DNA of 64,000 nt from Candidatus Moraniibacteriota bacterium (GTDB lineage Bacteria; Patescibacteriota; Minisyncoccia; Moranbacterales; UBA1568). Each line of letters starts with the position of its first letter. Within the stretch, counting starts at the first letter, position 1. The stretch lies in assembly GCA_013336285.1 (NCBI GenBank), contig JAAXTX010000003.1, positions 3,448-67,447 of the forward strand. Direction: 5' to 3'. The position numbers and the translations under genes are program-made. This document shows, piece after piece, positions 4,440-35,963 of this stretch. Under the pieces are notes generated by a model that worked only from the letters and a program-made list of their open reading frames with translations, was not told where the DNA came from and did not search any database.

Positions 4440-4458
4440 TATCTTGCCAGTCAATAAA

Positions 4459-4494
4459 CATGCCCGGTATCGAAAAAATACCGGGCATTCTTAT
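4459..4494 (+). terminator. Hairpin terminator after the 3375-4439 gene.
   Basis: An 11-bp stem atgcccggtat/ataccgggcat around a cgaaaaa loop. The downstream T tract is weak (tctt). Confidence 0.45.
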
Positions 4495-4722
4495 AATCCG
4501 CGTTTTGGCACATCGATCTTAGCGCGATTTATTCTGTTCGCCGTGGAACGAGATATTCCCTGATCTCGGAATTCATACCGATACGAACTTTCACGGTCGA
4601 AAGGAACGTGCGATATTATCATTCGTTTTCCCATTAATCGACTTTTCCCGACGTAGGGACCGAATCATATCGTCATGTTCATTGCCCCTTATGAATATTT
4701 CTGATACGGTAGTGAATGAAAC

Positions 4723-6827: not shown

Positions 6828-6860
6828 TATCCTGTCGTCACCCCGCATATCGAGAAACAT

Positions 6861-6893
6861 AAAAACCCCCAAGAGATACTCCGGGGGGTTTAT
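6861..6893 (+). terminator. Bidirectional rho-independent terminator between the convergent flippase gene and the 6907 minus-strand gene.
   Basis: aaaaa-CCCCC-(loop)-GGGGGG-tttat. Confidence 0.55.
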
Positions 6894-6906
6894 CGTTCAT
6901 ACGGTG

Positions 6907-7458: not shown

Positions 7459-7566
7459 TTTGAAGGTTCCGTTTCAGGTTCCCGCAAGCGCCGCGGTGAG
7501 CAAAGCCGACTCTTTCAGCGATAGTGTATCGCATATGCGAAAAAAGGCAATCCAATAACCGGTATA

Positions 7567-9135: not shown

Positions 9136-9179
9136 ACGTGGCTTACAGAATATCGCAACACTCGTTCATATAAGGCTTT

Positions 9180-10970: not shown

Positions 10971-11061
10971 TGTGGTACCGTATCGGATATGGAGGGCTAT
11001 TTACGGTCGGTTTTTCCTAAGAATTTTACCGCTTTCCACGAAAGAAAGCAATCGAAAACCT

Positions 11062-13326: not shown

Positions 13327-13333
13327 CCTGCCT

Positions 13334-15202
13334 ATGAAGAAGCCGCTGAGAATACACGAGCATGTCGCGACCACCCTCCTTGCCGGCATTATTCTAGTCT
13401 CTCACCTCGCTCTCGGGATCCCTCACATCGGATCCTTCATCACGGCGGACGAGCATTATTGGGTCGAAGAGCGCATCCCGGACTACTTCGATGCCTGGGC
13501 AAGGCTCAAATGGAAGAAGACCCTCATAAACGACAAGCCTGGCGTCTCGCTTGCACTCGTTTCCGGTCCGGCACTCCTCTTCCATCCCGGAGGGATCCTC
13601 AGCTGCCGGACCGTGGAAGGACATACGTCTACCTGCGACCCCGCGGTCACTTCATCCCTCTATGCGTCGTTCCGGTTCCCGATTCTCGTCACGAACGCTC
13701 TGATGCTCGTCGCGATATTCTTCGCAATCCGCGCCTTTTCCGGTACGGCTGTCGCGTTCATGACGGCGATATTCGCTGCCGTCTCGCCCCAGCTCGTCGG
13801 TATGTCGCAGATCGTCAATCCGGATTCGCTGCTTTGGTCCTCGGGCGCGCTTGCGATCTTTTCGATGGCCGCTTTTCTGACGACTCTCAGGAAACGGCAT
13901 CTCATCACCGCTATCCTCTCACTCTGTTTGGCGCTCCTTTCCAAATACGTCGCGCTCATCATCATCCTGTTCCTTCCCGCGCTCCTGCTCGGCATCCATC
14001 TGTCCGACGAAGATTCAGAAAAGGTCGGACGACGCCTCCAGAGATTCCTGGGAACGGTCCTTACCTCGTTCGTCCCGCTTACGATATTCGTCCTCGCCGC
14101 ACCGGGAGTCCTCTCGTCGGACGAACGCATCATCGCGTTCCTTTCCGCCGATACCGGAAACATCTTCCTTCCCTGGGGCGCTTTCGCCGCATCCCTCGCT
14201 GTCACCGCTACGGTCATGTTCGCGAGAATTCCGAAACGTGTCGTCAGAAGGCTCGACCTGACGTTCCGCTGGTTGTTGGCAGCAACCGGAGTCATCCTCG
14301 TTTTATCCATCATGACGCTCATAGTCGCCCGATTGACTGCTCCGTCCTGGGACTACGAGATCTTCCGCCGCATTCCGTTCGACATTAAGAATATCTCCGA
14401 CGCGAAATACTATACCGATAAACGACTCACTCCGACCGATGTAGCGGCTTTGGAATTCTCACCGTTCGTCTACTCGCTTCCGGCCGCCGTGCTGATTCTC
14501 GGTACAGCCGCCCTGTTTAACCGTTCCTTGCGGGTCATGCGTGACAGAACGTCCGTCATTCCCCTTCTCATGGCACTCTTCATCGCGATAGAACTGGCAG
14601 CCTTCGCCGGATCGGGCATACGAACCACGCCGAGATACGTCCTCCTGACCCTTCCGATATTCTGCTTTCCGGCAGCCGATACGGCGGTCCGGATCGGTAG
14701 AGCGCTGCGCGGCCGTCTTCCGGAGCGATTGCGTTCCTTCACGCTCCCGGCCATCATCACACTCTCCGTCTTCGCTTCCCTTTCCGAGTTCGGAGGTAAC
14801 GCTCCATTCCATGCGAATTTCGCCAACGCGCTCCTTCCGAAGGACGACCTCACCGCGCATGCGTGGGGATACGGCGGATATGAGGCCGTACAATACCTCA
14901 ACTCGCTTCCCGATGCGGACCATCTCACCGTCTGGAGCGATTACTACGGTGTCTGCGAGTTCTTCCGCGGAAACTGTCTCACGAACTACACTTTCGACAA
15001 GGAAGTGACACGCCCCGATTACTACGTCCTCACCCGTCGCGGCATGTTCCGATATCTACCCCGATACGACGATTGGGAGCAGAAATCCGGCCTGACCGCC
15101 TACCGATACTACGACTCGGCCGATCCCGCCTGGGAACTCGATGTCACCGGAAAGAAAGATAATTTCGTGAAGGTAATCCAGGTAAAAGACGATACGCTAT
15201 GA
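13334..15202 (+). CDS. GT-C fold membrane glycosyltransferase, ArnT/PMT-like, paralog D.
   Basis: Carries the ADEHYWVEERIPDYF motif and is a tandem paralog of the upstream gene. Confidence 0.65.
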   Translation: MKKPLRIHEHVATTLLAGIILVSHLALGIPHIGSFITADEHYWVEERIPDYFDAWARLKWKKTLINDKPGVSLALVSGPALLFHPGGILSCRTVEGHTSTCDPAVTSSLYASFRFPILVTNALMLVAIFFAIRAFSGTAVAFMTAIFAAVSPQLVGMSQIVNPDSLLWSSGALAIFSMAAFLTTLRKRHLITAILSLCLALLSKYVALIIILFLPALLLGIHLSDEDSEKVGRRLQRFLGTVLTSFVPLTIFVLAAPGVLSSDERIIAFLSADTGNIFLPWGAFAASLAVTATVMFARIPKRVVRRLDLTFRWLLAATGVILVLSIMTLIVARLTAPSWDYEIFRRIPFDIKNISDAKYYTDKRLTPTDVAALEFSPFVYSLPAAVLILGTAALFNRSLRVMRDRTSVIPLLMALFIAIELAAFAGSGIRTTPRYVLLTLPIFCFPAADTAVRIGRALRGRLPERLRSFTLPAIITLSVFASLSEFGGNAPFHANFANALLPKDDLTAHAWGYGGYEAVQYLNSLPDADHLTVWSDYYGVCEFFRGNCLTNYTFDKEVTRPDYYVLTRRGMFRYLPRYDDWEQKSGLTAYRYYDSADPAWELDVTGKKDNFVKVIQVKDDTL

Positions 15203-21544: not shown

Positions 21545-22714
21545 CTATTTGCAATTGTTATAATACGTCTCCACGCGACCGCAATAATCCCGCGTCGTCG
21601 TCGCGCACCTGTTTGGCCCCCCTGCGTTCCAACAAGAAGCCACCTTTCGTATGTCGTTAAGCGAACAACCGTGCTTGGCGTTATCGTTCAAGAGCCACGC
21701 CGTACAGTTCATGTCGAGCGTGATGTCGCCCTGAATCTTTGCACACGTCTGGGCTGCGGTTCCGGTTATTCCGCACTTCGTACGATTTTCCGGCAATAGC
21801 TGACCATACCCGCAGGAACCGTGTCCATCAGTCGAAATGGATTTATTACAACCCTCACCTCCCTGAATAATGGATGTGATAATATTCGCGCTGATATGAT
21901 ACGTGTTGCTGCTAATAGCATTCGCTATGGTCGGATCCGTAGCACACCTTCCGGTCGTACAAGTTCCGGCTCCACCGACAGTCGCGAACGTGTACGGTGC
22001 GTCGGTATTCGCATCGGTGAATGGCGTCGTCGTCGTAAGCGACGTATCCGAAGCTATCGAAGCGATAGTGGCTGACTGCCCGTTTATGATGATCGTATCA
22101 CCGACTTTCAACGTCGACCGGAAAGTAGTCCCCGTCCCGGTCACCGTAGTTCCGCCCGCGACATTCGTAACCGTACCGTTTCCGACCTGCGCCACCTGTG
22201 CCCCGGTCCCCTGAACAGCCGTACCCGCCGAAGAAGTCGTATCACACTCTATTTGAAAGCCGTGTTGGATACTGAACGACGCGCTCACGCCGAGATCGGT
22301 CTTCGTCGGCAGCAGCCAGTAAATGATAAGATTGACGATCAACCAGGCGAACAGGACTATAGTGATTCCGGACAATGCGGCCCAGAGCCCCTTCTTTGCG
22401 GTCCCGATCAAGCCCTCGTTTCCGGATGAAACGATGTATAGCACGCCCATTGCCGTAATGATGGAAAGGGCGAGAAATACCATGACCGCCATGAAGTAGT
22501 CGATGATATTCTTGATGCCGACGAAGAAATGACACAGCGTACACGGGTTCTCCATGGGACCGCCGCACGGCACAAGTCCTGCAGCTTGGACGGAATGCGG
22601 AAGAAGAGAAAGAGCGAGAAGCGCGAGAGTGACACTGAATACCATCACGAACCAGAACGATTTCGGTCTGATCATATTGCTATGGAAATACCGGTTTTTT
22701 TCTCGTCCCCTCAT
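21545..22714 (-). CDS. T4SS-pilin-like (TrbC/VirB2-like, VPCG-motif) protein fused to a long Thr/Gly-rich and Cys-rich C-terminal extension. The start is possibly the internal Met at 22675.
   Basis: Signal peptide, then AGLVPCGGPMENPCTLC, then two hydrophobic helices. This matches the pilin-like proteins common in CPR genomes. About 250 further residues follow: a GT-rich stretch (TGTGTT..., TSLTTTTPF) and a domain with about 14 Cys. Confidence 0.5.
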   Translation of the reverse strand: MRGREKNRYFHSNMIRPKSFWFVMVFSVTLALLALSLLPHSVQAAGLVPCGGPMENPCTLCHFFVGIKNIIDYFMAVMVFLALSIITAMGVLYIVSSGNEGLIGTAKKGLWAALSGITIVLFAWLIVNLIIYWLLPTKTDLGVSASFSIQHGFQIECDTTSSAGTAVQGTGAQVAQVGNGTVTNVAGGTTVTGTGTTFRSTLKVGDTIIINGQSATIASIASDTSLTTTTPFTDANTDAPYTFATVGGAGTCTTGRCATDPTIANAISSNTYHISANIITSIIQGGEGCNKSISTDGHGSCGYGQLLPENRTKCGITGTAAQTCAKIQGDITLDMNCTAWLLNDNAKHGCSLNDIRKVASCWNAGGPNRCATTTRDYCGRVETYYNNCK

Positions 22715-22875: not shown

Positions 22876-23835
22876 TCAGGTGCGATCATAATGGCGATAC
22901 CAATCCACGAAACGAGCTACGCCCTCGTCGATATTCGTGCAGGGAGTCCAACCGAGCGCGCGAAGCTTCGAGATGTCCGCGACCGTACGGCTCACGTCGC
23001 CAGACTGCATCGGAAGCATCCGTTTTTCGGCGGTTTTTTCGGCATACTTTTCCACCGCCGCAATATAATCCGAAAGTGCCTCGTCCCGGTCACCACCGAT
23101 GTTCATGACACTTCCTGGCGGCAGATCGGCATCAAGCGTTACGAGTATCCCGGATACTATGTCGTCGATATAGGTAAAGTTTCGACGCATATCCCCACCG
23201 TTATAGACATCGATCGGTTTGCCGTCAATAATGTTCGCCACGAACTTGAACACGCCCATATCGGGCCTTCCCCATGGTCCATAGACGGTAAAAAACCGTA
23301 GTCCGGTCGTCTTCATGCCGTATACATGTCCGTAAACATGGGCAAGAAGTTCGGTAGATTTTTTCGTCGCCGCATAGACAGATACCGGATGATCGACCGG
23401 GTCCGACTCCGAAAACGGTACTTTGGCGTTCTCTCCGTAGACGGACGACGACGAGGCGTATACAAAATGATTCGTCCCGAACTTCCTGGCACATTCGAGC
23501 ATATTAAGCGTACCCATCACGTTCACGTCGGCATAGAGTTCAGGCCGCTCGAGCGAATACCGCACTCCCGCCATCGCGGCCAAATGGATAATCCTTTCCG
23601 GTTGTTCTTTCTCGAAAACGGAATCAAGAAACGCACGGTCGCGGACATCGCCTTCATACAAACGAAACTTCCCCTCGTATCCACGCAGGAACACCGAAAT
23701 ACGGTCACGCTTCAGTTTCGGGTCGTAATAATCGTTGAAATTGTCGATGAGTATCGGGGTATCGCCACCATCCATCAAAGCCTTGGCCACGGCCGATCCG
23801 ATAAACCCCGCCCCGCCGGTAACGAGAATGGTCAT
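22876..23835 (-). CDS. NAD-dependent nucleotide-sugar epimerase (GalE-like; UDP-glucuronate 4-epimerase-like).
   Basis: TGGAGFIGS NAD-binding motif and the YAATK catalytic motif, at 319 aa. Its neighbour is ugd. Confidence 0.75.
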   Translation of the reverse strand: MTILVTGGAGFIGSAVAKALMDGGDTPILIDNFNDYYDPKLKRDRISVFLRGYEGKFRLYEGDVRDRAFLDSVFEKEQPERIIHLAAMAGVRYSLERPELYADVNVMGTLNMLECARKFGTNHFVYASSSSVYGENAKVPFSESDPVDHPVSVYAATKKSTELLAHVYGHVYGMKTTGLRFFTVYGPWGRPDMGVFKFVANIIDGKPIDVYNGGDMRRNFTYIDDIVSGILVTLDADLPPGSVMNIGGDRDEALSDYIAAVEKYAEKTAEKRMLPMQSGDVSRTVADISKLRALGWTPCTNIDEGVARFVDWYRHYDRT

Positions 23836-24048: not shown

Positions 24049-25281
24049 TCATTCCTTCGGATGAATCGAGCCGCCCTTGACCTCTCCTGATACCCGACCG
24101 ATCGATTCCTTAAGATATTCCACGTATTCCCCGTCATCCGCATTAGTCGTCACGTATCTGACCAGCACCGTTTTTCGAGCCTGTTCACCGATGATTCGAC
24201 GAAGATCAAAGTCGGTTATGAGTCGTTCAAGTTTTTCCTTCCACTCAATTTCGTTCGCAGCGACGAATCCGTCCACCCCTTCTCGGATCGCCTCACGGAA
24301 GGTCCTCGTGCCGGCAGCGACCGTCGGCACACCCAGGATGCCCGCCTCGAAGAATTTCAACTCGGATTTACCTTCGCAAAAAGGATTCCCTATTTCCAAT
24401 GGCGCAATATTGATATCGACCGATGCGATATTCCCGAAATGCTTTTTCCGTTCGACATAGTGCATTCGGTCGATTCGGTCCGAAAAAGCCCCGAACATAT
24501 CATCAAGCACAAGCGGTCCAACGATCAGAAGCCGCAGATTCGCATGTTTTTCGAAAAGTTCGATCAGCACACCCGTTACGGTCGAAAAGTCCTTGTCATG
24601 TCCGGCTGTGCCGCTGAAATAACCGATCGTTATGACATCATCCGTTCTCGAGTTCATCCATTCCTGTCGTTTATGATAGAGTTCATCGGCGATCGCGACG
24701 TCAGAAACTGGCAATCGGTTCGGAACCACGAACACTTTCTTTTCCTTTTCGCGCAATTTTTCCGCAAGAAACGAGGTCGATGTCGTCGCGACTTGCACGT
24801 ATGGATCGGCCAGGATTTCTCCCCCGACCCCGTTCTCGTACAGTTTTCGCTCGAGCGGATTCATGACCCGCCAATAGTCCATGTGCACTAAAAATGCCGG
24901 GTCATACACGAGATCGTCGGTCTCGAATATGATTGTCTTTCCCATTCGCTTGATTTCCTGAACCAATTTCGAGACGGATGAGGTATAGAGTACCCGATGA
25001 AAGATGAACACCGCGAAATTGTCCGCGTATGAAACAAGACGAGGATTTTCCGGTGCCGTTATGGAAGAACTGATGCCGCGAAAACCGAGTTCTTCAGCAA
25101 CGAATTTGGTCCTGAAATGAGCACTATCCCCAACCCCGCCGGAAATAAACAGAACATCGGCCGGATGCACGCGCGTAAAGAGCTCGAGTCCCGCGGAAAT
25201 AATCCGTTTCATGCCATCTATGACTCCTTCATTCCGAAGTACGCGCCAAGCCTTACCGATCTTTATGAGGATTAGTTTCAT
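24049..25281 (-). CDS. GT4-like glycosyltransferase. The alternative start at 25212 has AGGAG upstream.
   Basis: C-terminal GT-B motif CEGKSELKFFEAGILGVPTVAAG. The gene overlaps the upstream gene in ATGA. Confidence 0.6.
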   Translation of the reverse strand: MKLILIKIGKAWRVLRNEGVIDGMKRIISAGLELFTRVHPADVLFISGGVGDSAHFRTKFVAEELGFRGISSSITAPENPRLVSYADNFAVFIFHRVLYTSSVSKLVQEIKRMGKTIIFETDDLVYDPAFLVHMDYWRVMNPLERKLYENGVGGEILADPYVQVATTSTSFLAEKLREKEKKVFVVPNRLPVSDVAIADELYHKRQEWMNSRTDDVITIGYFSGTAGHDKDFSTVTGVLIELFEKHANLRLLIVGPLVLDDMFGAFSDRIDRMHYVERKKHFGNIASVDINIAPLEIGNPFCEGKSELKFFEAGILGVPTVAAGTRTFREAIREGVDGFVAANEIEWKEKLERLITDFDLRRIIGEQARKTVLVRYVTTNADDGEYVEYLKESIGRVSGEVKGGSIHPKE

Positions 25282-26495
25282 ACGCGTCTCTTCAAGATAT
25301 CCCGATATATCACCTCGATCTTCTCACCCGTTTCATCCCAAGTGAATCCATCCGCAAGAAGACGGTTTGCCTGCCCGATATCGTGCCATGACCCGGGTTT
25401 TTCGACAAGTAAAATGATCGCTTCGGCAAGCGACTCCGCAGTGCCATCTGTAGCGTACGCGCCGCCGTCACCCAGATATTTCCTATTATTCGGGGTATCG
25501 AAACAAACGACCGGAAGACCGGCTCCCATATACTGGAGCATTTTTCCGCTCGCCTGACCCGTATCGTCGTGTTTAGGATCGACCGCGATATCGCTCGCGC
25601 CGAGAATTTCCCCGATGGAGAAATACGGCAAGGGACTCACGACCGTCACGCGTTCTGTGACACCGTATCTTGAAAGAAGCGGATCGAGCAGGTCCCTCGG
25701 GAATCCGGCCAGAATGAAATGCGTGGACGAATCGGAACGAAGTACGGTCGGAATCGCAGCAACAAGCGTCTCAACCCCCTTATTCGGTATAAATGCCCCC
25801 GTATATACTATGACAGTCGCTTCACGTGGAATCAGATTGGCGATCCTGACCCGCTCGCGGGCATCCGCGGATAGAGGCGCCAACTTCCGCGCGCCGTCGA
25901 GTACCGTCTCGACACGTCCCTTTTTCCGTATCGAGGAAATCTCTTCGGCATTAGTCCAGGAACTCGCTACGGCCACATCGCCGAGATTATCCAACCATGC
26001 CTCAACCGACCTGAAAATAGCGCGAAGAAAACCGCCCCGAAGATACTCGTGCGAGACCATTTCACGTGTCAGACTTCCGTGAAAATCCGCCACCAATTTC
26101 GGACGTTGACCATTCAACCGAAGAAGCAACGTCGCTACCCAGGCGATCGCGACGCCCTCATGAATATGGGCATGAATGATATCCGGACGAAATTTTCTCG
26201 AAAGCGTGTAGGTCTTCCTGATCAGGAGTACGTCGAGCACAAGCTTCTGCCAATCCGGTCCGGCTTCGAGTTTTCTATACCAGAAAAGCAGTCGGCGGAT
26301 ACGCCTCACCTCGATACCGGGATTCTCCCGTTCCGGGATATCGTTCCCGATATGATATGTCGCGATCTTCACTTCATGGCCGCGACGAACGAGTGCCCGA
26401 GCCTCCTCGAGAATACGCACATGCGTTCCCCGATCGGCGAAGAACGGGGTAGGTGCCACCATGAGTATCTTCAATCGACTATTCGTTTCCATCAT
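25278..26495 (-). CDS. GT4 family glycosyltransferase.
   Basis: LKILMVAPTPFFADRGTHVRILEEARALVRRGHEV N-terminus, and the C-terminal G(A)GLPVV donor-binding motif. Confidence 0.75.
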   Translation of the reverse strand: MMETNSRLKILMVAPTPFFADRGTHVRILEEARALVRRGHEVKIATYHIGNDIPERENPGIEVRRIRRLLFWYRKLEAGPDWQKLVLDVLLIRKTYTLSRKFRPDIIHAHIHEGVAIAWVATLLLRLNGQRPKLVADFHGSLTREMVSHEYLRGGFLRAIFRSVEAWLDNLGDVAVASSWTNAEEISSIRKKGRVETVLDGARKLAPLSADARERVRIANLIPREATVIVYTGAFIPNKGVETLVAAIPTVLRSDSSTHFILAGFPRDLLDPLLSRYGVTERVTVVSPLPYFSIGEILGASDIAVDPKHDDTGQASGKMLQYMGAGLPVVCFDTPNNRKYLGDGGAYATDGTAESLAEAIILLVEKPGSWHDIGQANRLLADGFTWDETGEKIEVIYRDILKRRV

Positions 26496-26534: not shown

Positions 26535-28994
26535 TTACGCGAGGTCGGCTTCGGCAATCGTCACACTCCCCCCTTCGATCACTTCACCGGCAATCACTTT
26601 CCTGACGATCACATCCTCTATATGATCCTCGATATACCGGTTGAGGGATCTTGCGCCGAACACCGGTTCGTATCCCTGTCGGACGATGGCGGCGGCGACT
26701 CCCTCCGTGAAGGCGACCGAGATGTTCTTCTGTTTCTTGATGCGGTCCGAGAGACTCGTGAGCTTGATCTGAACCACCTGTGAAAGTTCCCCTCCGAGAA
26801 GCGGAGCGAAACAGACGATGCCGTCGAAACGGTTCAGGAATTCCGTACGGAACGTACCCTTCTGTTCTATGTCCGTCAAAAGTTTCTTCCGGAGATCGTC
26901 CTGCGTGATACCTGCGGAAACGAGTTCGGCGATGAGTCCGGAACTCGCGTTCGAGGTCGCGATGATTATTGACTTCCGGAAATTTATCTTCTTTCCGAAC
27001 GCATCGGTCACGAAGCCTTCGTCAAGAATCTGAAGGAAGATGTCGAGCACTTTCGGATATGCCTTCTCGATTTCGTCGAGCAACAGTACCGAGAACGGAT
27101 GTTCCTTCATAACGCCGGACAGGCGTCCCTCCTCGCCGGTAACATTCGATCCGAGCATGCGATCAGCGGCATCCGATGATTGGAATTCGCTCATATCGAG
27201 ACGGACCATACGGTTCTCGTCACCAAAATACGCCTCAGCGAGCGCCTTGGCCGTCTCGGTCTTTCCGACACCGGTCGGTCCAAGAAAGAGAAACGAACCC
27301 AGCGGTCGATTCGGATTGCCGAACCCGGCCCTGGCACGCCGGAGCGCTTCGGCGACCTGCCTGACCGCTTCGTCCTGACCCACGACGCGCAAATGGAGTA
27401 TTTCCTCGAGCTTAAGAAGTCTCTCTTTCTCGCTCTCACCGAGCGCGCCGATCGGCACACCGGTCTTCAGCGAGACAAACGCCATGACGGTCCGCGGCGT
27501 TACGTATGGTCCGTCCGGCTCAACCTGCCAATTCTGCATCGTTTCCTGCGCAAGGTCGATCGCTTTTTCCGGATACGGAATATCCCATTCGTACTGTCCG
27601 GAAATTTCGACGATCGACTGGAGCGCTTTCCAGGAAAAAATCACGCGATTCCGTTCCTCCGGAGCGAAAACGTTGAGCAGGATACGGGCCGTGTCCTCCG
27701 GTCCGGGCTCACGGAGATAGACCGCTTCGAGAAACTTCAACGTCGGCTCGTCATCATGGGCGAGGGCGTTGTATCCGGACGCGCTCATCATGCCGATAAC
27801 CCGGAATGACGGTAAAGCGAGAAATTCCGTAAAGGCACTGGAAAGGTCGATCCGACCGCTCTTCCCGTTCAGGAAAGAATCAAGGTTTTCAATCACGAGT
27901 ACGACATTCCCAGCGTTGGCAGCCTCATAAAAAAGAGAGCGGATGAAATTTTCGGGATCCTCACCACGATTCCCCGCATCACCGACCGCTATGCTCAAAT
28001 CGAAAGAGAGGAATCTCAGCTGTTCGAATCCCGGAAGATCACCCTCGCGAATTTTTCTGGCCAATGCGTGCACGAACGTCTTCTTGCCTATACCAGCGTC
28101 ACCTACCAACACGAAACTGTTCTGACCAGGCCTACCGAGCAAAAGAGTCGTAACTCGGAGCTCGTCATCGCGACCGAACAGGTGTAATTTCGAATATTCC
28201 GAGAAATCCGCTTTCGAGATGTCAGTGGCGTATCTGTCGAGATGCACCGTGAAGCCGAACTGCCATCCGCGACCGAACGGGACGGTCTTCCGAAGATTCT
28301 CCCAGGAGAGCAATTGCAGACGTTTCGCGGCACGTTCAGCCGCGAACGCCTCATAGGTTACGATGTCGTCGAAATCCTTGTCACTCATGTTAAGATCCGC
28401 GAGACGATCACGAAACGCCTCATCGCTCGTCCAATCCGAGGCGCGAAAGTCCTGCACAGCGATTCCCAGACGTCCAAGCACCCGTGGAAACCACTTCATT
28501 CGAAACAGTTCGCCACGGGACCGGGGGAGAAACGATTTCGGTTGCCGCGAGGCGAACGAGACCAACTGCACAAGAAGCAGGACAAATGAAAACGCCAGAA
28601 AAAGCCATTCTCCACCTTTCATGTGCCCAAACGGCGATCTGACAAAAAACCAGAATAAGGCCGGGACCGTCACCAACCACCCGACCAGGAATCCGAATCC
28701 GAAAAGCGCGAGAAACGCGATGGATACCGATCCGAAAACAAGTACGAAACTTCGAACAATGACACCCATCACCCGCGAAAAGACATTCATTGCGAACCGG
28801 TTCAACGACTTTCCGATGTCGAGCCCCAACCAGTTCTTCGGGGAACTATCGCGTTTCCACGGCGAAAAAAAAGTGGGGACCAATTCTCGGAAATTGAAAA
28901 TGTGAAGGAAATATCTAAAGAGATTTTCCCACGACGAAACGAGTGAGAGGAAACCCTCCGAGTAAATCCAGATGAGAAAAGAAAACGGAAACAT
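26535..28994 (-). CDS. Membrane-anchored ClpA/ClpB-family AAA+ ATPase with a degenerate D1 domain and an intact D2.
   Basis: The N-terminal ~150 aa contain four TM helices. The D1 region aligns to ClpB NBD1, but Walker A reads GDAGIGKK and Walker B reads VLVIENLD (DE replaced by EN). D2 has GPTGVGKT, LLLDEIEKA and sensor-2 GARSLNR. A ClpA-like linker is present (AIDLAQE, LEEILHLRVVGQDEAV). No IGF/IGL ClpP loop is seen. Confidence 0.7.
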   Translation of the reverse strand: MFPFSFLIWIYSEGFLSLVSSWENLFRYFLHIFNFRELVPTFFSPWKRDSSPKNWLGLDIGKSLNRFAMNVFSRVMGVIVRSFVLVFGSVSIAFLALFGFGFLVGWLVTVPALFWFFVRSPFGHMKGGEWLFLAFSFVLLLVQLVSFASRQPKSFLPRSRGELFRMKWFPRVLGRLGIAVQDFRASDWTSDEAFRDRLADLNMSDKDFDDIVTYEAFAAERAAKRLQLLSWENLRKTVPFGRGWQFGFTVHLDRYATDISKADFSEYSKLHLFGRDDELRVTTLLLGRPGQNSFVLVGDAGIGKKTFVHALARKIREGDLPGFEQLRFLSFDLSIAVGDAGNRGEDPENFIRSLFYEAANAGNVVLVIENLDSFLNGKSGRIDLSSAFTEFLALPSFRVIGMMSASGYNALAHDDEPTLKFLEAVYLREPGPEDTARILLNVFAPEERNRVIFSWKALQSIVEISGQYEWDIPYPEKAIDLAQETMQNWQVEPDGPYVTPRTVMAFVSLKTGVPIGALGESEKERLLKLEEILHLRVVGQDEAVRQVAEALRRARAGFGNPNRPLGSFLFLGPTGVGKTETAKALAEAYFGDENRMVRLDMSEFQSSDAADRMLGSNVTGEEGRLSGVMKEHPFSVLLLDEIEKAYPKVLDIFLQILDEGFVTDAFGKKINFRKSIIIATSNASSGLIAELVSAGITQDDLRKKLLTDIEQKGTFRTEFLNRFDGIVCFAPLLGGELSQVVQIKLTSLSDRIKKQKNISVAFTEGVAAAIVRQGYEPVFGARSLNRYIEDHIEDVIVRKVIAGEVIEGGSVTIAEADLA

Positions 28995-29091
28995 AGCTAT
29001 CCCTTACGATGTGCCGGACGCACATTGTTTCCCCTCCATTTTACCCGTGACTGTCTCCTTTTGCAAACCGGCTCAATCATGATGCTTCACA

Positions 29092-29120
29092 TTGAAAAGA
29101 CGCCGCCTTTCGGCTATACT
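29092..29120 (+). promoter_or_regulatory. Sigma70-like promoter for paralog E, giving a leaderless or near-leaderless mRNA.
   Basis: TTGAAA, a 17-nt spacer, then TATACT, with the ATG of the gene 8 nt after the -10. The TTG of the -35 element is what the ORF track reports as its start at 29092. Confidence 0.5.
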
Positions 29121-29127
29121 GGGAAAC

Positions 29128-30888
29128 ATGGAACATGCTACTTCCACACCTGTCCGGGAGCGGTTATTTTCTTCCGCTATGGCAGGAATAGTCACGCTGG
29201 GACTTATCTCCTACGCCTCCGCTGTTGCGGGTATTTTTTTCCATGCGACAGTCCTCATTTTTTCCATTCCCATCATCACCGTGACGCTCATCCTGCTTTT
29301 CAGATGGATCCTTCGCGAAACCATTTCGACAAGAATGATATTCACATGTCTGATCGCTCTTTCCTTCGCGCTTCTCCTGCCGGTTGAACCGTCTGTCTTT
29401 TCGGGTCGCGACCAAGGATCCATCGCCGAGGCCGCGATCGAACTCGCCCATAACGGTACGCTTCATTTTTCCTCCCCGGCCGTAACGACATTCTCCGACA
29501 TTTACGGTCCGGGAAAAGCACTGAATTTCCCCGGCTTCTATTATGATGACAACGGGAAACTGACGACTCAGTTTCCGATCGGCTCCATCTCTTTTCTCGC
29601 AACATTCGTGTCCCTTTTCGGGATCACCGGCCTGCTCGTCGCCAATGGCGTACTGCTTATAGCATCGCTGTCGACCCTCTACGTCCTCGTTCGGACGCTT
29701 GCGAATGAACGTTACGCGGTAGGCACATTTTTCGCCGGTGCCCTTTCCTTCCTACCCTTGTGGTTCTCAAAGTTCACCTTGTCCGAGAATCTCTCCCTGT
29801 TCCTTTTTCTCTTCCTTTCGCTGACCCTCGTCAGATTCCTTCGGAAGCCCGATAGCGCGACATTCTTTGTTTCTTTTTTTCTGGCCATTTTTTTCGCAGC
29901 GACGCGTTTCGAGGGACTTTTTTCACTCGCCGTCTCAATCGTTATACTTTTCCTTACGCCATCTGGACGAAAATTCTCCGAAAAGGACCGACTGATGAGA
30001 CGTATCGTTCCGGTCATCATATTGATCGCAGCCCTATTTATAAACGTGTTTTCCTCGACTCCCATGTACCGAAGCATCGGCAAGGCACTCCTGCAAGACG
30101 GGTTCGCTACGGAGCACCCTATCGGTACGAACGGTTTCGCATCCACCGTCGCTCTATGGAACCTATTCATTCCGTACGGCCTTTTCCTTCCGTTCGTCCT
30201 CGGAATTATCTCTCTTGTCCTGCTGCTCTTCCGAAAACGATTTCTCGCCCTCATTCCGGCTATGCTCGCCATTCCGACCTTTCTCTTTCTCATCGATCCC
30301 ACCATCACTCCGGACCATCCGTGGATGCTTCGGCGGTTCCTATTCTCGCTTTGGCCGACTTTTTTCGTATCCGTTCCGGTCGCTTCTTACCTATTCATAA
30401 AAGACAACAAGAGTCGCGTCATTCGGTCATTACCGATCGCCTTGTTCGTACTTATCGTCATCTTTTCACTTCCGGCGACTACTCGTTCATTTTCCGTGTC
30501 CGAGAATCGCGGACTTATCAACGAGACCTCGACGCTTACACGCCGGTTCGGTAATCGCGATCTCCTCCTTATCGATCGGGAGGCGACTGGAGACCCATAC
30601 ACCATCCCGGCTGGTCCGATACGGTTCCTATACGGGAAAAATGCGGCCTACTTTTTCAATCCTTCAGATTATGAGAAGATTCCAAAGGATCGCTATGATC
30701 ACATCTATCTCCTGACCCCGATAGGAAAAATCCCCTCACAGTCAGATATTCGTGCCACCGTCGGAGAAGTCTCAATCATTCCGTTCTCCTTTCAACGGCT
30801 GGAACGGCTTCCGCTCTCCGTTGCCAGACTGCCGAAACTCGAGACTGTCAGCCAAGACGCCGCTCTCGTAGAACTCAAACCATTATGA
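29128..30888 (+). CDS. GT-C fold membrane glycosyltransferase, ArnT/PMT-like, paralog E.
   Basis: At least 12 TM helices, and the acidic loop after TM1 is SGRDQGSIAEAAIELAHNGTL. It has a C-terminal soluble domain. Confidence 0.55.
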   Translation: MEHATSTPVRERLFSSAMAGIVTLGLISYASAVAGIFFHATVLIFSIPIITVTLILLFRWILRETISTRMIFTCLIALSFALLLPVEPSVFSGRDQGSIAEAAIELAHNGTLHFSSPAVTTFSDIYGPGKALNFPGFYYDDNGKLTTQFPIGSISFLATFVSLFGITGLLVANGVLLIASLSTLYVLVRTLANERYAVGTFFAGALSFLPLWFSKFTLSENLSLFLFLFLSLTLVRFLRKPDSATFFVSFFLAIFFAATRFEGLFSLAVSIVILFLTPSGRKFSEKDRLMRRIVPVIILIAALFINVFSSTPMYRSIGKALLQDGFATEHPIGTNGFASTVALWNLFIPYGLFLPFVLGIISLVLLLFRKRFLALIPAMLAIPTFLFLIDPTITPDHPWMLRRFLFSLWPTFFVSVPVASYLFIKDNKSRVIRSLPIALFVLIVIFSLPATTRSFSVSENRGLINETSTLTRRFGNRDLLLIDREATGDPYTIPAGPIRFLYGKNAAYFFNPSDYEKIPKDRYDHIYLLTPIGKIPSQSDIRATVGEVSIIPFSFQRLERLPLSVARLPKLETVSQDAALVELKPL

Positions 30889-32051
30889 TCCTTTTCGATG
30901 CCGCATCAATCCTGCCCGGGACCCTTAGGAAACGTTTTCTTATTTTTCAGGCTGTTCTTCTGTTCTTATTCATGGGAGTAGCTTTTTACTTTGGCTTTTC
31001 ACTCCTCTTTCCTTCGCAGGTCTTCACTTATTCATTTAAGAACCCCGATACAGCAAAAAACACACTCGAAATTCCGACCGGAATCGAGTCAGGCGGATCG
31101 AATTTAATAAAGGGGAAAGTGAAGTCGGGCGATAAACTTAACACCTATGCGGGAACCTCGGGAAATTTTTCCTCAGTGAATGTCCGGGTTGGCCTGCGAA
31201 AAGATTCAGACACCCCCAATGATATCAGGATATCTCTCAGACGCTCCTTTCGGTCGTTCTTCTATCCGAACGGTCCGGATGCCGTATCGCCGCCGGAACA
31301 GCGCATACTCGCGATAGACGGCTCACCATATCTGTTCACACAAGAAAAAATATCACCTTTCATAAGTGACGCGGCGGCCTTATCTTGGGCCCCGAAAGAA
31401 AAGGTGCTTCCCAGCAAGAGTGAGATTCTCTCCATCTTCCCACCACAGGATACCATTATGGGATTCCGCCCCGGAACGCTCCTCTCCGACGCACAAGGGG
31501 TCTATGTGATCGACGGTGATAGCAAGGCTCATCCTATCGGTAGCACGTCCGCATTCGAAACTCTCGGATTCCACTGGAACGATGTGCACGCGATCAGTGA
31601 AGAGGAACTCGGGATTCACAAACGAGGAAAGATATTACTTTTCGGTGCGGCGCAACCCGATGGGTCGGTATTCCTCGACCGAACGACTATGCGCTATTTC
31701 CTGATCGAAAAAGGTATGAAAATCCCCGTCGTGAACAAGGACCGTCTCGATACCCTTCTGGGCGTCACGACTCCCATCGAAGCAACGAATGCCGCTCTCG
31801 GAATATCCGCCTCCTGCCATCTGACGCGAAGTTTCATTCTGTTTCAGACGGTATATTCCTGCGACATTCCGATACAGGATCTTCGAGATCTTCCCGGTGG
31901 CAGTTTCGAGTTGTCACTCGACACGGATCGCGAAGTTCATCTCTCCGATCTCTCGCTCAATTTCCGAACAAGTCCGGACAGACAGAATTTCTCACTCTTC
32001 CTCCGTCAATTGAAGGAACGGTTCCAGACGGTCTACGGAAACAAGCGATAG
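30885..32051 (+). CDS. Hypothetical membrane-anchored protein (N-terminal TM, ~350-aa extracytoplasmic domain).
   Basis: ATGA overlap with the upstream GT-C gene. One N-terminal TM helix. Confidence 0.45.
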   Translation: MILFDAASILPGTLRKRFLIFQAVLLFLFMGVAFYFGFSLLFPSQVFTYSFKNPDTAKNTLEIPTGIESGGSNLIKGKVKSGDKLNTYAGTSGNFSSVNVRVGLRKDSDTPNDIRISLRRSFRSFFYPNGPDAVSPPEQRILAIDGSPYLFTQEKISPFISDAAALSWAPKEKVLPSKSEILSIFPPQDTIMGFRPGTLLSDAQGVYVIDGDSKAHPIGSTSAFETLGFHWNDVHAISEEELGIHKRGKILLFGAAQPDGSVFLDRTTMRYFLIEKGMKIPVVNKDRLDTLLGVTTPIEATNAALGISASCHLTRSFILFQTVYSCDIPIQDLRDLPGGSFELSLDTDREVHLSDLSLNFRTSPDRQNFSLFLRQLKERFQTVYGNKR

Positions 32052-32094
32052 CGAAATCAAATAGCATGGAACCACTATCCGAAAAAGAATCGAT

Positions 32095-32517
32095 ATGAAG
32101 ATCCGTACGATCATGCGCTTCTGGAAAAAGTTCGTCGACCGATCCGTACCGGCGATGCCTTTCGTGTATGCCTCGCTAGTCGAAATCATCGAGTTGTTCC
32201 TGTTTTCCTTCGCGCTTATCATAACCGCTGAAGCCGTGCTTCCCGGCATCTTCTCCCAGAGACTGAACCTCGCGAAACCGTTTCTTGCGATTCTGATACT
32301 TATCGCGATCGCCGGATTCATCGGAAAAAAGACCGGGGTATCGTTTCCGTTCCTTCCCGATAAGAAAAGCGTCTTTACCTGGATCGGCATAGCCTGGCTC
32401 GCTTTCCTCCTCACGCTGTCTTCCATAAAGTTCCCGCCTTTCATCGTTCCAATCATTGTCGGTGCCCTGTTCCTGACCGTCCGCCTCTTCTGGCGGATTC
32501 TTTTCCGAAAAGAGTAA
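32095..32517 (+). CDS. Small integral membrane protein (4 TM helices).
   Basis: Hydrophobic 140-aa ORF. Confidence 0.4.
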   Translation: MKIRTIMRFWKKFVDRSVPAMPFVYASLVEIIELFLFSFALIITAEAVLPGIFSQRLNLAKPFLAILILIAIAGFIGKKTGVSFPFLPDKKSVFTWIGIAWLAFLLTLSSIKFPPFIVPIIVGALFLTVRLFWRILFRKE

Positions 32518-33779: not shown

Positions 33780-35963
33780 TCATTCATGTCGTTCCACGAT
33801 CCGGACGGAACCTGTCTCTATGTCCATCTCAACGATGTCTCCGTCATGCAGGATATGCGTAGCGTTTTTCGTGCCGATAATGCACGGCTTCCCCTTCTCC
33901 CGCGCGATAACGGCCGCATCACACGTTATGCCGCCCTCATCGGTGATGAACCCGAGTGCATGCTCCGCCGCAGGCGCGAATTGCGGCGTCGTCATCGAAG
34001 TGACAAGGATATCACCGCTTTTGACCTTGTCATTTTCCCTCGCGGAACGGAGCACCTTTACACGAGCCCGATAATAACGTTCCGGTCCCCATGATGCGGC
34101 CATGCCCGAGATATCTTCGACTGTATCCGCATTTTTCAAGTCACCAGACACTTTTCTTGACTCCTCCTCTGTGGCTATCCGGATATTTCCATCGCTTGTG
34201 ACCGACACGAACTCACCACCCATTCGGTGCTCGGCGATACCTTTCAATTCGGCTCCGCGCGTTCCGAGATCCCGAAGTTCCTCCGTGAACAGGAATTTCA
34301 AATGACGCGAAGAGATACCCGTACGTACCGATAACTCATCAAGTACCCGCTTATATTCATAGAAAAGCCTGTAATCAATCATTTTCCGATCTTCCGCCCA
34401 CGTCGCCATGTTCCGTAACATTTCCAGCCACCGCTTCTCACGCCTTCCGGAAAAATACGTTTTCCTGATTTGTTCCGCCCTCTGTTTCAGATGATTTCCC
34501 CACTCTTCCATTTCCTTGAACTGTACCTGGACATTTTTTCTTCTTGCCCGATTTTCACAGATCCGATCGAGAAAATAAGTCTCGTCCCAAATGTTCGGTC
34601 CGTCATATCCGAACGGTATCCAATAATAATGTTGGGAAAGTTGTTCCGAAATCGCAGAAAGGATAGGGTCATGCTCAAGCGCGATTTTTAAGATATCCCG
34701 TTCCATTCTCAATACGTAGCTGTCTTGTTTCGGACAGGAGACCGCATCAAGCTCGTCTTCCGGTAACCCTAATGCGACCGTTATTTTTTTCCGGAACGGT
34801 TCCCCGGCCATTGTGAAGGAGAACATGCTTGATGCATCGTATGCCGAAAAAAGGCCCCGTATCCGTTCAGCTATATCGTGCAGTTCATTGTCACTGATAA
34901 CCTCGAAATCATCCTGGCCGATCGTGTCCAGAAAACGCAATGCGTCCTTTTTTGCCGCATCAACCGCCTCGGCTATACGTTCATAGTATCCTTCTTCCGA
35001 AATTAATCGCTCAGCGATATATTCCCCGGTCTCAGCGTATTCCTTCACGGGAACGACCGTCGTCATTATGCCGTCGAAAAATACGTTATACATGACGGAA
35101 AGCGACCTTCCATATATATCACCCGATAGCCGGCTCGTCTGTGCCAACGAATTCCAATAGGCGGGCGAAAGATCGTTTTCCCTCGTTCTCAGTACGAAGA
35201 GATCCTCATCGACAGCGCCGTTCTTTCCGGCCGACTCTCGATCTCCGGGCGTTTTCTCCATGAATTCATATTCCGGGTGTTCCGATGTGAACGAATCAAG
35301 ACTGCCCAGCCATGTCTCGTGGCCATCCACAAGCAGGAACGCCTCAAGACGACGTTCCAGCATATCGGAAAGTGGGATATCGTCAATTTCGTGCGGTAGA
35401 ACCACGCCGGACTGCTCTTTCGATATTCCGGCGACACGTGAAATGCCGTCCCTGACAAATGCATCGTTCACGGCGAAGAAATCGTTGATTTCATCGGCTC
35501 CTACCGGCACTTGATCGGACGCCTTCGACTTCAAGTCTTCAATACCGATACATGAAAAAACGGTCACGCAAAAAGCCGCCTCATACATCGCATCGACATA
35601 CGCTTTGCGGCTCTGCTGTGACGAGAAACCGTCTTCTTGGCGAAGCGCGGCGAGATTTCCGGATGATTTCCGATATTCCTCGAGACATCCCTCGAGGAAC
35701 GCCGGCCCCTTCGTATTTTCCTTGAGAATCCTTTCGGACAACCAAAGCATGCCTTCCCGATGTACCCATGTCTCAATAAGACCGTTATGGACGAAGTGTG
35801 CGACCAAGGGTGGATGAGGATTCGCCTGACCGAAAACGACGCCGCATCCGTGAGAAAGGGCTTTCGCCCACAGTATCTGCGTGAAGAGTGTCGCGTCACG
35901 CGAATCCGATTTCTCGAACTTCAGCGTCAACTCGTCCGTGGCGTCCTTCGACATAATCGTCAT
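33780..35963 (-). CDS. Large protein carrying a C-terminal PEP-utilising-enzyme mobile (phosphohistidine-type) domain, with Asp at the phospho-His position.
   Basis: The C-terminus reads DEGGITCDAAVIAREKGKPCIIG against the consensus GGxTSHAAIIAREMGIPxVVG. No PPDK-type ATP-grasp motif was seen in the N-terminal 600 aa. Confidence 0.5.
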   Translation of the reverse strand: MTIMSKDATDELTLKFEKSDSRDATLFTQILWAKALSHGCGVVFGQANPHPPLVAHFVHNGLIETWVHREGMLWLSERILKENTKGPAFLEGCLEEYRKSSGNLAALRQEDGFSSQQSRKAYVDAMYEAAFCVTVFSCIGIEDLKSKASDQVPVGADEINDFFAVNDAFVRDGISRVAGISKEQSGVVLPHEIDDIPLSDMLERRLEAFLLVDGHETWLGSLDSFTSEHPEYEFMEKTPGDRESAGKNGAVDEDLFVLRTRENDLSPAYWNSLAQTSRLSGDIYGRSLSVMYNVFFDGIMTTVVPVKEYAETGEYIAERLISEEGYYERIAEAVDAAKKDALRFLDTIGQDDFEVISDNELHDIAERIRGLFSAYDASSMFSFTMAGEPFRKKITVALGLPEDELDAVSCPKQDSYVLRMERDILKIALEHDPILSAISEQLSQHYYWIPFGYDGPNIWDETYFLDRICENRARRKNVQVQFKEMEEWGNHLKQRAEQIRKTYFSGRREKRWLEMLRNMATWAEDRKMIDYRLFYEYKRVLDELSVRTGISSRHLKFLFTEELRDLGTRGAELKGIAEHRMGGEFVSVTSDGNIRIATEEESRKVSGDLKNADTVEDISGMAASWGPERYYRARVKVLRSARENDKVKSGDILVTSMTTPQFAPAAEHALGFITDEGGITCDAAVIAREKGKPCIIGTKNATHILHDGDIVEMDIETGSVRIVERHE

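Follow-up and report, generated by a model that had tools for sequence, protein, structure and literature searches.

Proteins of the Hsp100/Clp type are textbook threading machines, whose mechanism is explained by tyrosine pore loops and whose partnerships are explained by N-domains, M-domains and ClpP loops. Other AAA+ proteins work at membranes. FtsH, Msp1/ATAD1 and Bcs1 are N-terminally anchored AAA+ rings with the entry face at the bilayer, and they act on membrane proteins. FtsH, Msp1 and Bcs1 are single rings of the classical clade; FtsH and Msp1 use aromatic pore loops, and FtsH has a protease domain. The eukaryotic protein Torsin is a membrane-associated, ClpB-D2-like AAA+ protein that has no aromatic pore-loop residues. 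It is a single module in the lumen of the endoplasmic reticulum, its Walker A is non-canonical, and it pairs with a dead AAA-like partner and membrane-spanning cofactor, LAP1 or LULL1, which supplies the arginine finger. The function of Torsin is non-threading and still unclear. In this study we analyzed a gene, here called clp, in a stretch of 64,000 nucleotides of contig JAAXTX010000003.1 from a Candidatus Moraniibacteriota bacterium (the whole stretch is hereafter called the window). The protein encoded by clp has the Hsp100 fold and combines a membrane anchor with a degenerate first AAA+ module (D1), an intact second one (D2), and pore loops from which the aromatic residues have been lost. 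In addition, a conserved module at its N-terminus, which we call SPWK, is encoded in distant relatives by a small gene of its own.

Fold and ATPase modules of the Clp-like protein

The clp gene starts with ATG, with AGGGA about 6 nucleotides upstream of the start, and its product is 100% identical over the full length to a Moranbacteria protein that NCBI names "ATP-dependent Clp protease ATP-binding subunit". The features of the gene and of its product are listed below, with residue numbers of the protein in parentheses and with the mean confidence of the AlphaFold2 (AF2) model given as pLDDT.

26535..28994, minus strand: whole clp gene, encoding an 819-residue membrane-anchored Clp/Hsp100-type protein; stop codon at 26535-26537 (from the open reading frame (ORF) listing, the ClpB/ClpC matches in the PDB and the AF2 model)
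28752..28994, minus strand: soluble/amphipathic part of the SPWK module (1-81), with helix 4-33, the FFSPWKRD loop at 42-49 and the basic helix 60-81
28551..28751, minus strand: uncharged hydrophobic block (82-148), with a long helix to residue 122, the conserved P111, a loop of 3-4 residues and helix 127-148
28185..28550, minus strand: helical linker (149-270) in the place of the Clp_N domain, with a basic juxtamembrane stretch; pLDDT about 90
27504..28184, minus strand: D1 pseudo-ATPase module without M-domain (271-497), aligning to ClpB NBD1, catalytic residues lost
28080..28103, minus strand: D1 Walker A, GDAGIGKK (298-305), glycines and Lys kept, Mg-coordinating Thr/Ser replaced by Lys
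27957..27983, minus strand: D1 pore-loop position, GDAGNRGED (338-346), canonically K-Y-R-G-E, with Asn342 in the place of Tyr
27885..27902, minus strand: D1 Walker B, VLVIEN (365-370), Asp-Glu replaced by Glu-Asn
27726..27740, minus strand: D1 arginine-finger position, LKFLE (419-423), Arg-Arg replaced by Lys-Phe
26796..27407, minus strand: D2 large ATPase domain (530-733), catalytically intact; Pfam AAA_2, E 2e-40; motifs kept in at least 201 of 204 relatives
27258..27281, minus strand: D2 Walker A, GPTGVGKT (572-579), from the family alignment
27120..27152, minus strand: remnant of the D2 pore-1 loop, GSNVTGEEGRL (615-625), 4 residues shorter than the canonical GAPPGYVGYEEGGQL and without an aromatic residue
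27060..27086, minus strand: D2 Walker B, LLLDEIEKA (637-645), from the family alignment
26949-26960, minus strand: D2 sensor-1, ATSN, within the large domain
26823-26843, minus strand: D2 arginine finger in EFLNRFD, within the large domain
26538..26795, minus strand: D2 small domain (734-819); Pfam ClpB_D2-small, E 3e-19
26649-26660, minus strand: D2 sensor-2, FGAR (779-782), R782 invariant

When the protein was compared with PDB sequences by HMMER, the best match was Thermus ClpB (1qvr, E 1.3e-107), and ClpB and ClpC proteins headed the list. Residues 252-487 aligned to residues 153-390 of Thermus ClpB, that is, to NBD1 (E 1.2e-19), and residues 498-813 aligned to residues 521-837, that is, to NBD2 (E 1.7e-85). 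Among the Pfam models, D1 was matched by generic P-loop models only. The AF2 model, which was built on 68 sequences, had a mean pLDDT of 86.6 and a pTM of 0.74. It superposed on ClpC and ClpB protomers over about 575 residues with a TM-score of about 0.8 (target-normalized), and the top Foldseek matches were ClpC. The window protein is a genuine protein of the class I Clp/Hsp100 fold, in which D1 and D2 stand in tandem and D2 carries a small domain of the ClpB type.

None of the established Clp families took in this protein. Its scores against the NCBIfam equivalogs for ClpB, ClpA, ClpV, ClpK and ClpG were all far under the cutoffs. For ClpB it scored 410 bits against a cutoff of 1232 (TIGR03346) and 349 against 1417 (PRK10865), for ClpA 347 against 993 (TIGR02639), and for ClpV/TssH 313 against 885; genes of a type VI secretion system were found neither among the Pfam-scanned ORFs of the window nor among the called genes of related loci. 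No match to Clp_N (PF02861) was obtained in the protein by Pfam at E<=0.1. At the position of the M-domain there are 10 residues (488-497), where Thermus ClpB has about 130 (residues 391-520). There is no conserved [LIV]-G-[FL] loop for ClpP, and the D2 loop at the docking position has a length like that of ClpB. The tripeptide AGI at residues 694-696 was considered as a cryptic ClpP tripeptide and was rejected, because the local SAGIT is variable (HGA, EGA or NGT in relatives) and the loop is short. A second canonical Clp protein in the 64-kb window was also rejected, as the 807-residue ORF encodes a PMT_2 protein and the 798-residue ORF encodes PheT.

These results define how the protein compares with its soluble relatives. 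Like ClpB/Hsp104, it has two AAA+ modules in the same order, a D2 large domain followed by ClpB_D2-small, identical catalytic residues in D2, and a short loop at the ClpP-docking position. In contrast to ClpB, it has no Clp_N, no M-domain (hence no coupling to DnaK), no live D1 and no pore tyrosines, and it has a membrane module and a transmembrane (TM) anchor. It resembles ClpA in having no full-length M-domain and aligns with ClpA in a single stretch (residues 252-813), and it resembles ClpC in its top structural matches. However, it differs from both in the absence of the [LIV]-G-[FL] loop, Clp_N, an active D1 and the pore tyrosines, and in being anchored in the membrane. The plant proteins SMAX1/SMXL/D53, of which SMAX1 appeared among the PDB sequence matches (9kkx, E 4.8e-08), are also Hsp100-derived and have abandoned the unfoldase role, but they are soluble nuclear transcriptional corepressors of eukaryotes without a membrane anchor, whereas D2 of the window protein is fully intact.

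The motifs were then read in two sets of homologous sequences. The close-family alignment contained 67 full-length homologues (41-78% identity) and three canonical ClpB/C sequences. The wider set contained 204 non-canonical relatives of 650-1000 residues, drawn from the full-length homologue search and from an exhaustive HMMER search of 1.84 billion representatives and clustered at 50% identity, and ten ClpB/C sequences served as its canonical comparison set. A word-index homologue search with residues 1-269 alone gave no matches, the index being insensitive, and searches with residues 1-500 and with the full length succeeded.

On realignment, neither the canonical GxxGxGK[ST] nor hhhhDE was seen in D1 of the window protein. 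In the 67 close homologues, the D1 Walker A reads GxxGIGK[K/R], the Asp-Glu of Walker B is replaced by EN, DH, DN, DD or NG, the arginine fingers RR are replaced by KF or KY, and sensor 1 is variable. The last residue of the D1 Walker A is Thr or Ser in 17 of the 204 relatives, with Lys (98), His (29) and Arg (26) dominating, and the Asp-Glu of Walker B is kept in 11. These losses are a conserved trait of the family and not a one-off. On the other hand, G301 and G303 of the P-loop are invariant and G298 and K304 are nearly so, and the pairwise identity of D1 within the family is 0.54, compared with 0.67 for D2 and 0.24 for the TM block, the last value being as expected for an anchor. We infer from the lost residues that D1 is incapable of ATP hydrolysis. 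Since the P-loop glycines and the Lys are preserved and the module is still well conserved, D1 most likely binds nucleotide or phosphate, or just scaffolds the ring, without hydrolysis.

The state of D2 is the opposite. The 67 homologues keep GPTGVGKT, hhhhDEhEKA, the TSN of sensor 1, EF(L/M)NRFD and FGAR. The Thr of Walker A is present in all 204 relatives, the Asp-Glu of Walker B and the Asn of sensor 1 in 202 each, and the arginine finger and the Arg of sensor 2 in 201 each. The arginine finger (R722) is invariant in the close-family alignment, and D2 is the region of highest conservation in the protein. D2 would thus be the sole motor.

The pore loops are changed in both modules. In the 67 homologues the D1 loop reads x-N-R-G-E, compared with the canonical K-Y-R-G-E, and the D2 loop reads GSxx----TGEEGRL, compared with the canonical GAPPGYVGYEEGGQL. 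That is, a deletion of four residues takes out the aromatic-hydrophobic pair of the D2 loop, and the canonical GAPPGYVGY has become GSNVTG in the window protein. In the 204 relatives the D1 pore position is Asn, Ser, Asp or Thr, and aromatics were absent among the residues listed. The D2 loop segment has 11 residues in 156 of these relatives, compared with 15 in all ten canonical ClpB/C sequences, and no fixed position in it carries a conserved aromatic residue.

The same loop was also observed in sequences farther away. At three Peregrinibacteria-like loci in which the SPWK module is not fused (L101-L103), some membrane-anchored Clp-like proteins (hereafter TM-Clp) keep a canonical D1 Walker A (GPQGVGKT), yet have no GYVG in D2. 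This pattern suggests that the loss of the pore loop was earlier than, or independent of, the inactivation of D1. Two outlier matches were a non-membrane protein from Myxococcales (P0093, 1147 residues), which likewise has no GYVG in D2, and an ankyrin-repeat protein (P0236, 1335 residues) with two ClpB-like double modules. Because P0093 lacks the D2 GYVG, pore-loop loss among Hsp100 relatives may extend beyond bacteria of the Candidate Phyla Radiation (CPR).

An initial annotation of this DNA had described a double-ring Clp protein whose first module aligns to ClpB NBD1 and carries degenerate Walker A and Walker B motifs, whose second module keeps GPTGVGKT, LLLDEIEKA and the sensor-2 GAR, and which has neither an M-domain nor an IGF/IGL loop for docking to ClpP. 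All of this agrees with the alignments and the AF2 model described above, and the motif calls hold both in the window protein and family-wide. Its remark that a membrane tether together with a pseudo-ATPase D1 is unusual for Hsp100 proteins was also sound. It made no mention of the loss of the D1 arginine fingers or of the two pore tyrosines, which came to light in the family alignment.

The SPWK module and its separate upstream gene

The initial annotation read the N-terminus as four TM helices. Four long helical stretches are indeed predicted with high confidence in the AF2 model (residues 4-32, 35-43, one continuous helix 60-122, and 127-148), but only residues 82-148 are of TM grade, and they probably form two passes. 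In the window protein and 61 homologues, residues 82-148 are nearly free of charge, with a mean Kyte-Doolittle hydropathy of 1.9-2.6. In the 61 homologues, helices 4-33 and 60-81 are amphipathic, with a hydrophobic moment of 1.2-1.5 and about three Lys or Arg residues each, and are not of TM grade. The stretch past residue 148 is strongly basic, with 7.4 Lys or Arg in 32 residues. Because basic stretches flank the uncharged block of 67 residues, the positive-inside rule makes it more likely that the chain has a cytoplasmic N-terminal module and crosses the membrane twice, once within residues 82-122 and once at 127-148, with an external loop of 3-4 residues. Membrane anchoring as such was supported, since a segment of TM grade was found in the first 260 residues of all 204 relatives.

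What had been read only as TM helices is a distinct conserved module. The unit that we call SPWK comprises residues 1 to about 122, that is, two basic amphipathic helices, the FSPWKR loop and the long hydrophobic helix. Its invariant or near-invariant positions are W9, G14, F33, T41, P45, W46, D49, G57, N70, R74, G77, R81 and G88, of which N70, R74, G77 and R81 are invariants of helix 60-81. Most of the conservation lies in the first 90 residues and at P111, rather than in the hydrophobic block. Such a pattern would not be expected of an anchor alone, and the N-terminal module therefore seems to be more than a plain anchor. The linker that follows also has a conserved motif, WENLRK..P.GRGW.[FY]G[FY]T.HLDRY, which runs into D1. 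Neither the SPWK module nor the small SPWK proteins described next had a Pfam match, and the AF2 model of residues 1-275 had no fold match in the PDB (best Foldseek E=5).

Four distant relatives, P0072, P0074, P0075 and P0081 (Peribacter riflensis), have a simple hairpin of two TM helices in the place of the module. Directly upstream of each of them lies an ORF of 129-145 residues, which abuts or overlaps the start of the Clp gene. When these small proteins were compared with residues 1-270 of the window protein by BLASTP, the E values were 1.6e-13, 2.8e-12, 6.4e-07 and 0.01, and residues 1-115 were covered. Both the small proteins and the module contain the FSPWK(R) loop, the N..SR..G..VR helix and, in the hydrophobic helix, the W...P pattern, and the residues that are invariant in the small proteins are those that are invariant in the N-terminus of the window protein. 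A hidden Markov model of the module detected the fourth small protein at E 2.4e-05, although this protein was outside the training set. Of the 204 relatives, 157 carried the module in fused form according to the same model and 47 lacked it, a ratio biased by the choice of the relatives for similarity to residues 1-500 of the query; all ten canonical ClpB/C sequences lacked it as well.

A metagenome scan seeded with the small SPWK proteins gave 17 loci, of which eight had at least 1.5 kb of downstream DNA. At every one of the eight, a Clp-like ORF follows on the same strand and starts at or before the stop of the small ORF; six of the eight were new. The Clp-like ORFs at these loci have N-terminal TM segments and no GYVG in the D2 loop. 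Together with loci L088 and L089, the small gene adjoins a TM-Clp gene at all ten distinct informative unfused loci. In the databases the small SPWK proteins are all named "hypothetical protein".

In unfused relatives, the SPWK gene is translationally coupled to the TM-Clp gene. By this comparison, the window protein is evidently a fusion of SPWK with a membrane-anchored ATPase consisting of helix 127-148, the linker, D1 and D2. The two occur both as neighbors and as one chain, which is a gene-fusion or "Rosetta stone" signal and marks SPWK and TM-Clp as predicted functional, and probably obligate, partners. The fusion also fits the topology with two passes: SPWK would give one pass ending outside, and the remaining helix of the ATPase would return the chain to the inside. 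The partner that the initial annotation called unknown can thus be named, since SPWK is identifiable as a separate upstream gene. We propose an "SPWK + TM-Clp" family of CPR bacteria, recognized by an N-terminal TM segment, a noncanonical D1, an intact D2, a shortened non-aromatic D2 loop, and SPWK either fused or immediately upstream. The window protein shows each of these features, with SPWK in the fused form.

Proposed mode of action at the membrane

As to function, we favor ATP-driven remodelling or gating of a membrane-embedded partner, through or together with SPWK, over hand-over-hand threading, and we give this a probability of about 0.5. The protein would form a ring, because D2 keeps an arginine finger, which acts in trans. 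Each subunit would cross the membrane twice and thereby keep the ring on the cytoplasmic side, where the D1 face would be turned toward the bilayer. D1 would serve as a nucleotide-binding or purely structural scaffold, and ATP turnover in D2 would drive conformational work on the membrane-embedded partner or client. SPWK would play the part of an adaptor or receptor, as N-domains and adaptors do in ClpA and ClpC, and the idea of an adaptor platform known from these two proteins may carry over to the module. In Moranbacteria, the best candidate for a client would be the envelope-glycan machinery encoded around the gene, above all the membrane protein mem598 described below. The canonical roles of Clp proteins, that is, those of a ClpP partner, a DnaK-coupled disaggregase or a canonical threading unfoldase, are unlikely, because the ClpP loop, the M-domain, Clp_N and the aromatic pore-1 loops are all absent.

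The nearest analogies in working logic are Torsin with LAP1 and the anchored rings FtsH, Msp1 and Bcs1. Torsin and the window protein share a ClpB-D2-type ATPase without pore aromatics that is located at a membrane together with a dead AAA module and a membrane cofactor. However, D2 of the window protein has a canonical Walker A and a canonical arginine finger, and the dead module is D1, a part of the same chain. The comparison with Torsin is an analogy and not a statement of membership: membership was rejected, as no PF06309 match was obtained on D2 at E<=1 and the D2 arginine finger is present. With FtsH, Msp1 and Bcs1 the window protein shares an N-terminal TM anchor that would set the entry face of the ring against the bilayer, but it differs from them in that its double ring is of the Hsp100 type and has neither aromatic pore loops nor a protease as partner.

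Several points weigh against the remodelling or gating function. The loss of aromatic pore loops is no proof that translocation was lost, because other loops could grip the substrate, and aromatics occur here and there in the D2 loop of some subfamilies, as in "GSF..". The helix at residues 82-122 has 41 residues, too many for it to be a simple single pass, so that a three-pass, kinked or re-entrant arrangement is possible. The role of SPWK is purely deduced, for a module with no match in Pfam and no PDB fold match, and ring assembly, topology and nucleotide binding by D1 are likewise deduced. The ratio of fused to unfused relatives carries the bias given above. Finally, the linkage to glycan genes may reflect synteny of the lineage and not function.

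The strongest competitor is a canonical membrane extractase or unfoldase, which would thread its substrate from the D1 face by means of non-aromatic loops and release it to the cytoplasm or to another protease. The initial annotation had suggested such an activity. Its geometry still fits, because an N-terminal anchor puts the entry face of D1 at the membrane, as in FtsH and Msp1, and D2 keeps every catalytic residue and the arginine finger. The "GSF.." of some relatives places an aromatic residue two residues into the D2 loop, and chaperone genes lie near clp in some relatives (HSP20, upstream, in L089; GroES/EL in L005; DnaJ in L002). In contrast, the aromatic pore-1 loops on which threading is built are absent from both rings. 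In the Moranbacteria subfamily neither ring has a pore-1 aromatic, and the deletion in D2 removes exactly the GYVG stretch; the replacement of the D1 Tyr by Asn, Ser, Asp or Thr in the wider set tells in the same direction. The absence of a ClpP loop, an M-domain and Clp_N also speaks against it. We therefore regard an extractase as rather unlikely, and keep to remodelling or gating of a membrane partner as the preferred function.

Gene neighborhood and meaning of the family

The genes and sites adjacent to clp are as follows.

25278-26495, minus strand: GT4 glycosyltransferase gene (Pfam), beginning 39 nucleotides past the clp stop
24049-25281, minus strand: GT1-like glycosyltransferase gene (Pfam), overlapping the GT4 gene by 4 nucleotides
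22876-23835, minus strand: NAD-dependent epimerase gene (Pfam)
29092..32517, plus strand: divergent triad encoding a polytopic membrane protein of 598 residues (mem598), a protein of 388 residues (hyp388) and a membrane protein of 140 residues (mem140)
29038..29067, minus strand: promoter-like site, from a consensus scan

The promoter-like site reads TTGCAA-17-TAAAAT and lies between the divergent genes, 44 nucleotides upstream of the clp start; it comes from the consensus scan alone and is weak. No terminator-like site was found in the gap between clp and the GT4 gene, and clp, the GT4 gene, the GT1-like gene and the epimerase gene are probably co-transcribed. The remainder of the window is taken up by an envelope-glycan locus with Wzy-like, Wzx-like, GT2 and three PMT_2 genes and a Bac_transf initiating transferase. 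The glycan genes at 1859-15202 and 51480-52904 encode a Wzy_C ligase/polymerase-like protein, a Wzx-type flippase, three PMT_2 (GT-C) proteins and Bac_transf. Two of the PMT_2 ORFs, at 9180-10970 (minus strand) and 10903-13326 (plus strand), overlap by 68 nucleotides as listed, and one of the starts is probably mis-set.

The conservation of this neighborhood was counted by tblastn at the 84 loci that had a Clp match, for neighbors lying within 6 kb of clp with their relative orientation preserved. These loci were drawn from 80 kept species-representative loci and the earlier loci L001-L006, several loci being truncated. Near clp, mem598 was found at 65 of the 84 loci, hyp388 at 62, the GT1-like gene at 51, the GT4 gene at 49, the epimerase gene at 42 and mem140 at 11. 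That is, mem598 and hyp388 are the most conserved neighbors of clp, and they are present at Clp identities down to about 37%. The fused form of clp occurs in at least 136 genomes in a scan of one genome per GTDB species; nearly all of these are metagenome-assembled genomes (MAGs) of the Moraniibacteriota/Parcubacteria group, and one is a complete genome of 1.29 Mb.

None of the proteins of the divergent triad had a Pfam match. The NCBI start of mem598 is at about 29179, and mem140 is a four-helix membrane protein. For mem598, 477 homologues were found; the best 120 are called "hypothetical protein" where they are named, and come from Moranbacteria, Patescibacteria or "Candidatus Fimivivens". 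The homologues share the invariant motifs SGRDQG and DHPWMLRR, and the mem598 profile had no sequence match in the PDB. We considered whether mem598 is a glycosyltransferase of the GT-C/PMT_2 type, but this was not supported: BLASTP against the PMT_2 proteins of the window gave E >=0.1, hhalign gave a probability of 0.5%, and there was no PDB match. A precomputed PF13231 tag was present on only one mem598 homologue.

Some further genes and records were observed in passing. At 21545-22714 (minus strand) a protein of 389 residues is encoded, with a weak N-terminal match to T4SS_pilin (PF18895, E 0.006), a middle part rich in Thr and Gly, and a C-terminal domain rich in Cys. This protein may belong to the CPR cell surface or be pilin-like, and it was not found beside clp in other genomes in the comparison of 84 loci. 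At 33780-35963 (minus strand) lies the gene of a protein of 727 residues in which Pfam matched only a PEP-utilizers mobile domain at the C-terminus; a homologue lies a few kb from clp in L002 and L007. A thymidylate-kinase gene stands beside or near TM-Clp in the distant CPR loci L004, L005 and L087, with a nucleoside deoxyribosyltransferase domain fused to the kinase in two of the three. L010, L017, L020-L022 and other loci have the Moranbacteria-type gene and synteny under the titles "uncultured Bdellovibrionales" or "Pseudobdellovibrionaceae", and in one case "Candidatus Fimivivens"; these titles on the MAG records look like taxonomic mislabels.

Outside Moranbacteria the setting is different. 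The relatives there lie mostly among tmk and the genes of ribosomal proteins, PNPase, MraZ and GroES/EL, and glycan genes are absent beside Clp in L004-L006, L087 and L089; L088 has one Glycos_transf_4 gene after Clp. Linkage to a glycan locus was therefore rejected as a property of the whole family and is specific to Moranbacteria. The placement of clp inside a glycan locus, as pointed out in the initial annotation, is true of the window and conserved in Moranbacteria, but apart from the single gene in L088 it does not extend to the distant relatives that were checked.

This distribution bears on a more special explanation, according to which the protein is a factor for the assembly or quality control of the Moranbacteria envelope glycan and would mature, gate or recycle mem598 or a glycosyltransferase complex. 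It could be a special case of the remodelling or gating function, and it would be compatible with either mechanism discussed above. The frequency of mem598 and hyp388 beside distant Clp proteins agrees with it, and so do the glycosyltransferase and epimerase genes downstream at many loci, the short gap without a terminator-like site, and the content of the whole window. On the other side stand the housekeeping neighbors of the relatives outside Moranbacteria (L088 excepted). Because those relatives have no glycan neighborhood, the ancestral function was probably not glycan-specific. Moreover, the gene order of a single lineage could reflect shared ancestry, and mem598 fits no family. We consider a dedicated glycan factor distinctly unlikely, less likely than the extractase. 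The suggestion that the protein is a non-enzymatic relic, that is, a Clp paralogue in decay with no more than a structural role in the membrane, would account for the many canonical elements that have been lost (catalysis by D1, the two pore loops, N-domain, M-domain and ClpP loop), but it is very improbable in view of the catalytic motifs of D2, intact in at least 201 of the 204 relatives, the rank of D2 as the most conserved region, and the full-length ORF in at least 136 species-level genomes. A component of anti-phage defence of the Dodola DolB or PDC-M37 type, suggested by PADLOC matches of residues 521-694 to DolB (E 6e-30) and PDC-M37B, is hardly credible, since these matches are confined to the D2 large domain (model positions 125-280 of 375) and amount to generic ClpB-D2 homology, mem598, hyp388 and mem140 gave no PADLOC match when scanned, clp has a fixed syntenic position at most of the 84 loci, which is the opposite of a mobile defence island, and neither DolA nor other defence genes were seen beside clp at these loci.

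We return to remodelling or gating of a membrane partner as the preferred function. A full-text search found no published description of a membrane-anchored Hsp100 protein without pore loops or of an SPWK protein; most subscription journals lie outside the coverage of this search, and an earlier description is possible. In the databases the ATPase of the family carries generic labels, namely ClpA, ClpC or "AAA family ATPase". The label "ATP-dependent Clp protease ATP-binding subunit ClpA/ClpC" is a problem of annotation, since the features for docking to ClpP are absent. As a wider and more tentative proposal, which we hold to be doubtful, SPWK and the TM-anchored, pore-loop-less Hsp100 protein may be an unrecognized two-component membrane machine that is widespread in CPR bacteria and is a bacterial counterpart of the Torsin type. 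Such a machine would use D2 for the non-threading gating, assembly or recycling of an envelope complex, and it may replace functions of ClpB or ClpC in reduced genomes.

The family keeps a competent D2 motor and drops the canonical elements by which Hsp100 proteins thread their substrates and find their partners, and in return it has acquired a membrane anchor and a small, dedicated partner protein in the membrane. Should D2 do useful work in the absence of pore aromatics, Hsp100 proteins would be capable of more mechanisms than those known so far, and the family would also be a bacterial system in which one could readily study how Torsin and other AAA+ proteins without pore loops exert their effects on membranes. 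CPR bacteria live as episymbionts, and their cell surface has a central part in this lifestyle. For the biology of these organisms, the SPWK and TM-Clp pair would be a conserved, ATP-consuming component located at the membrane, which in Moranbacteria is genetically tied to the genes of the envelope glycan.

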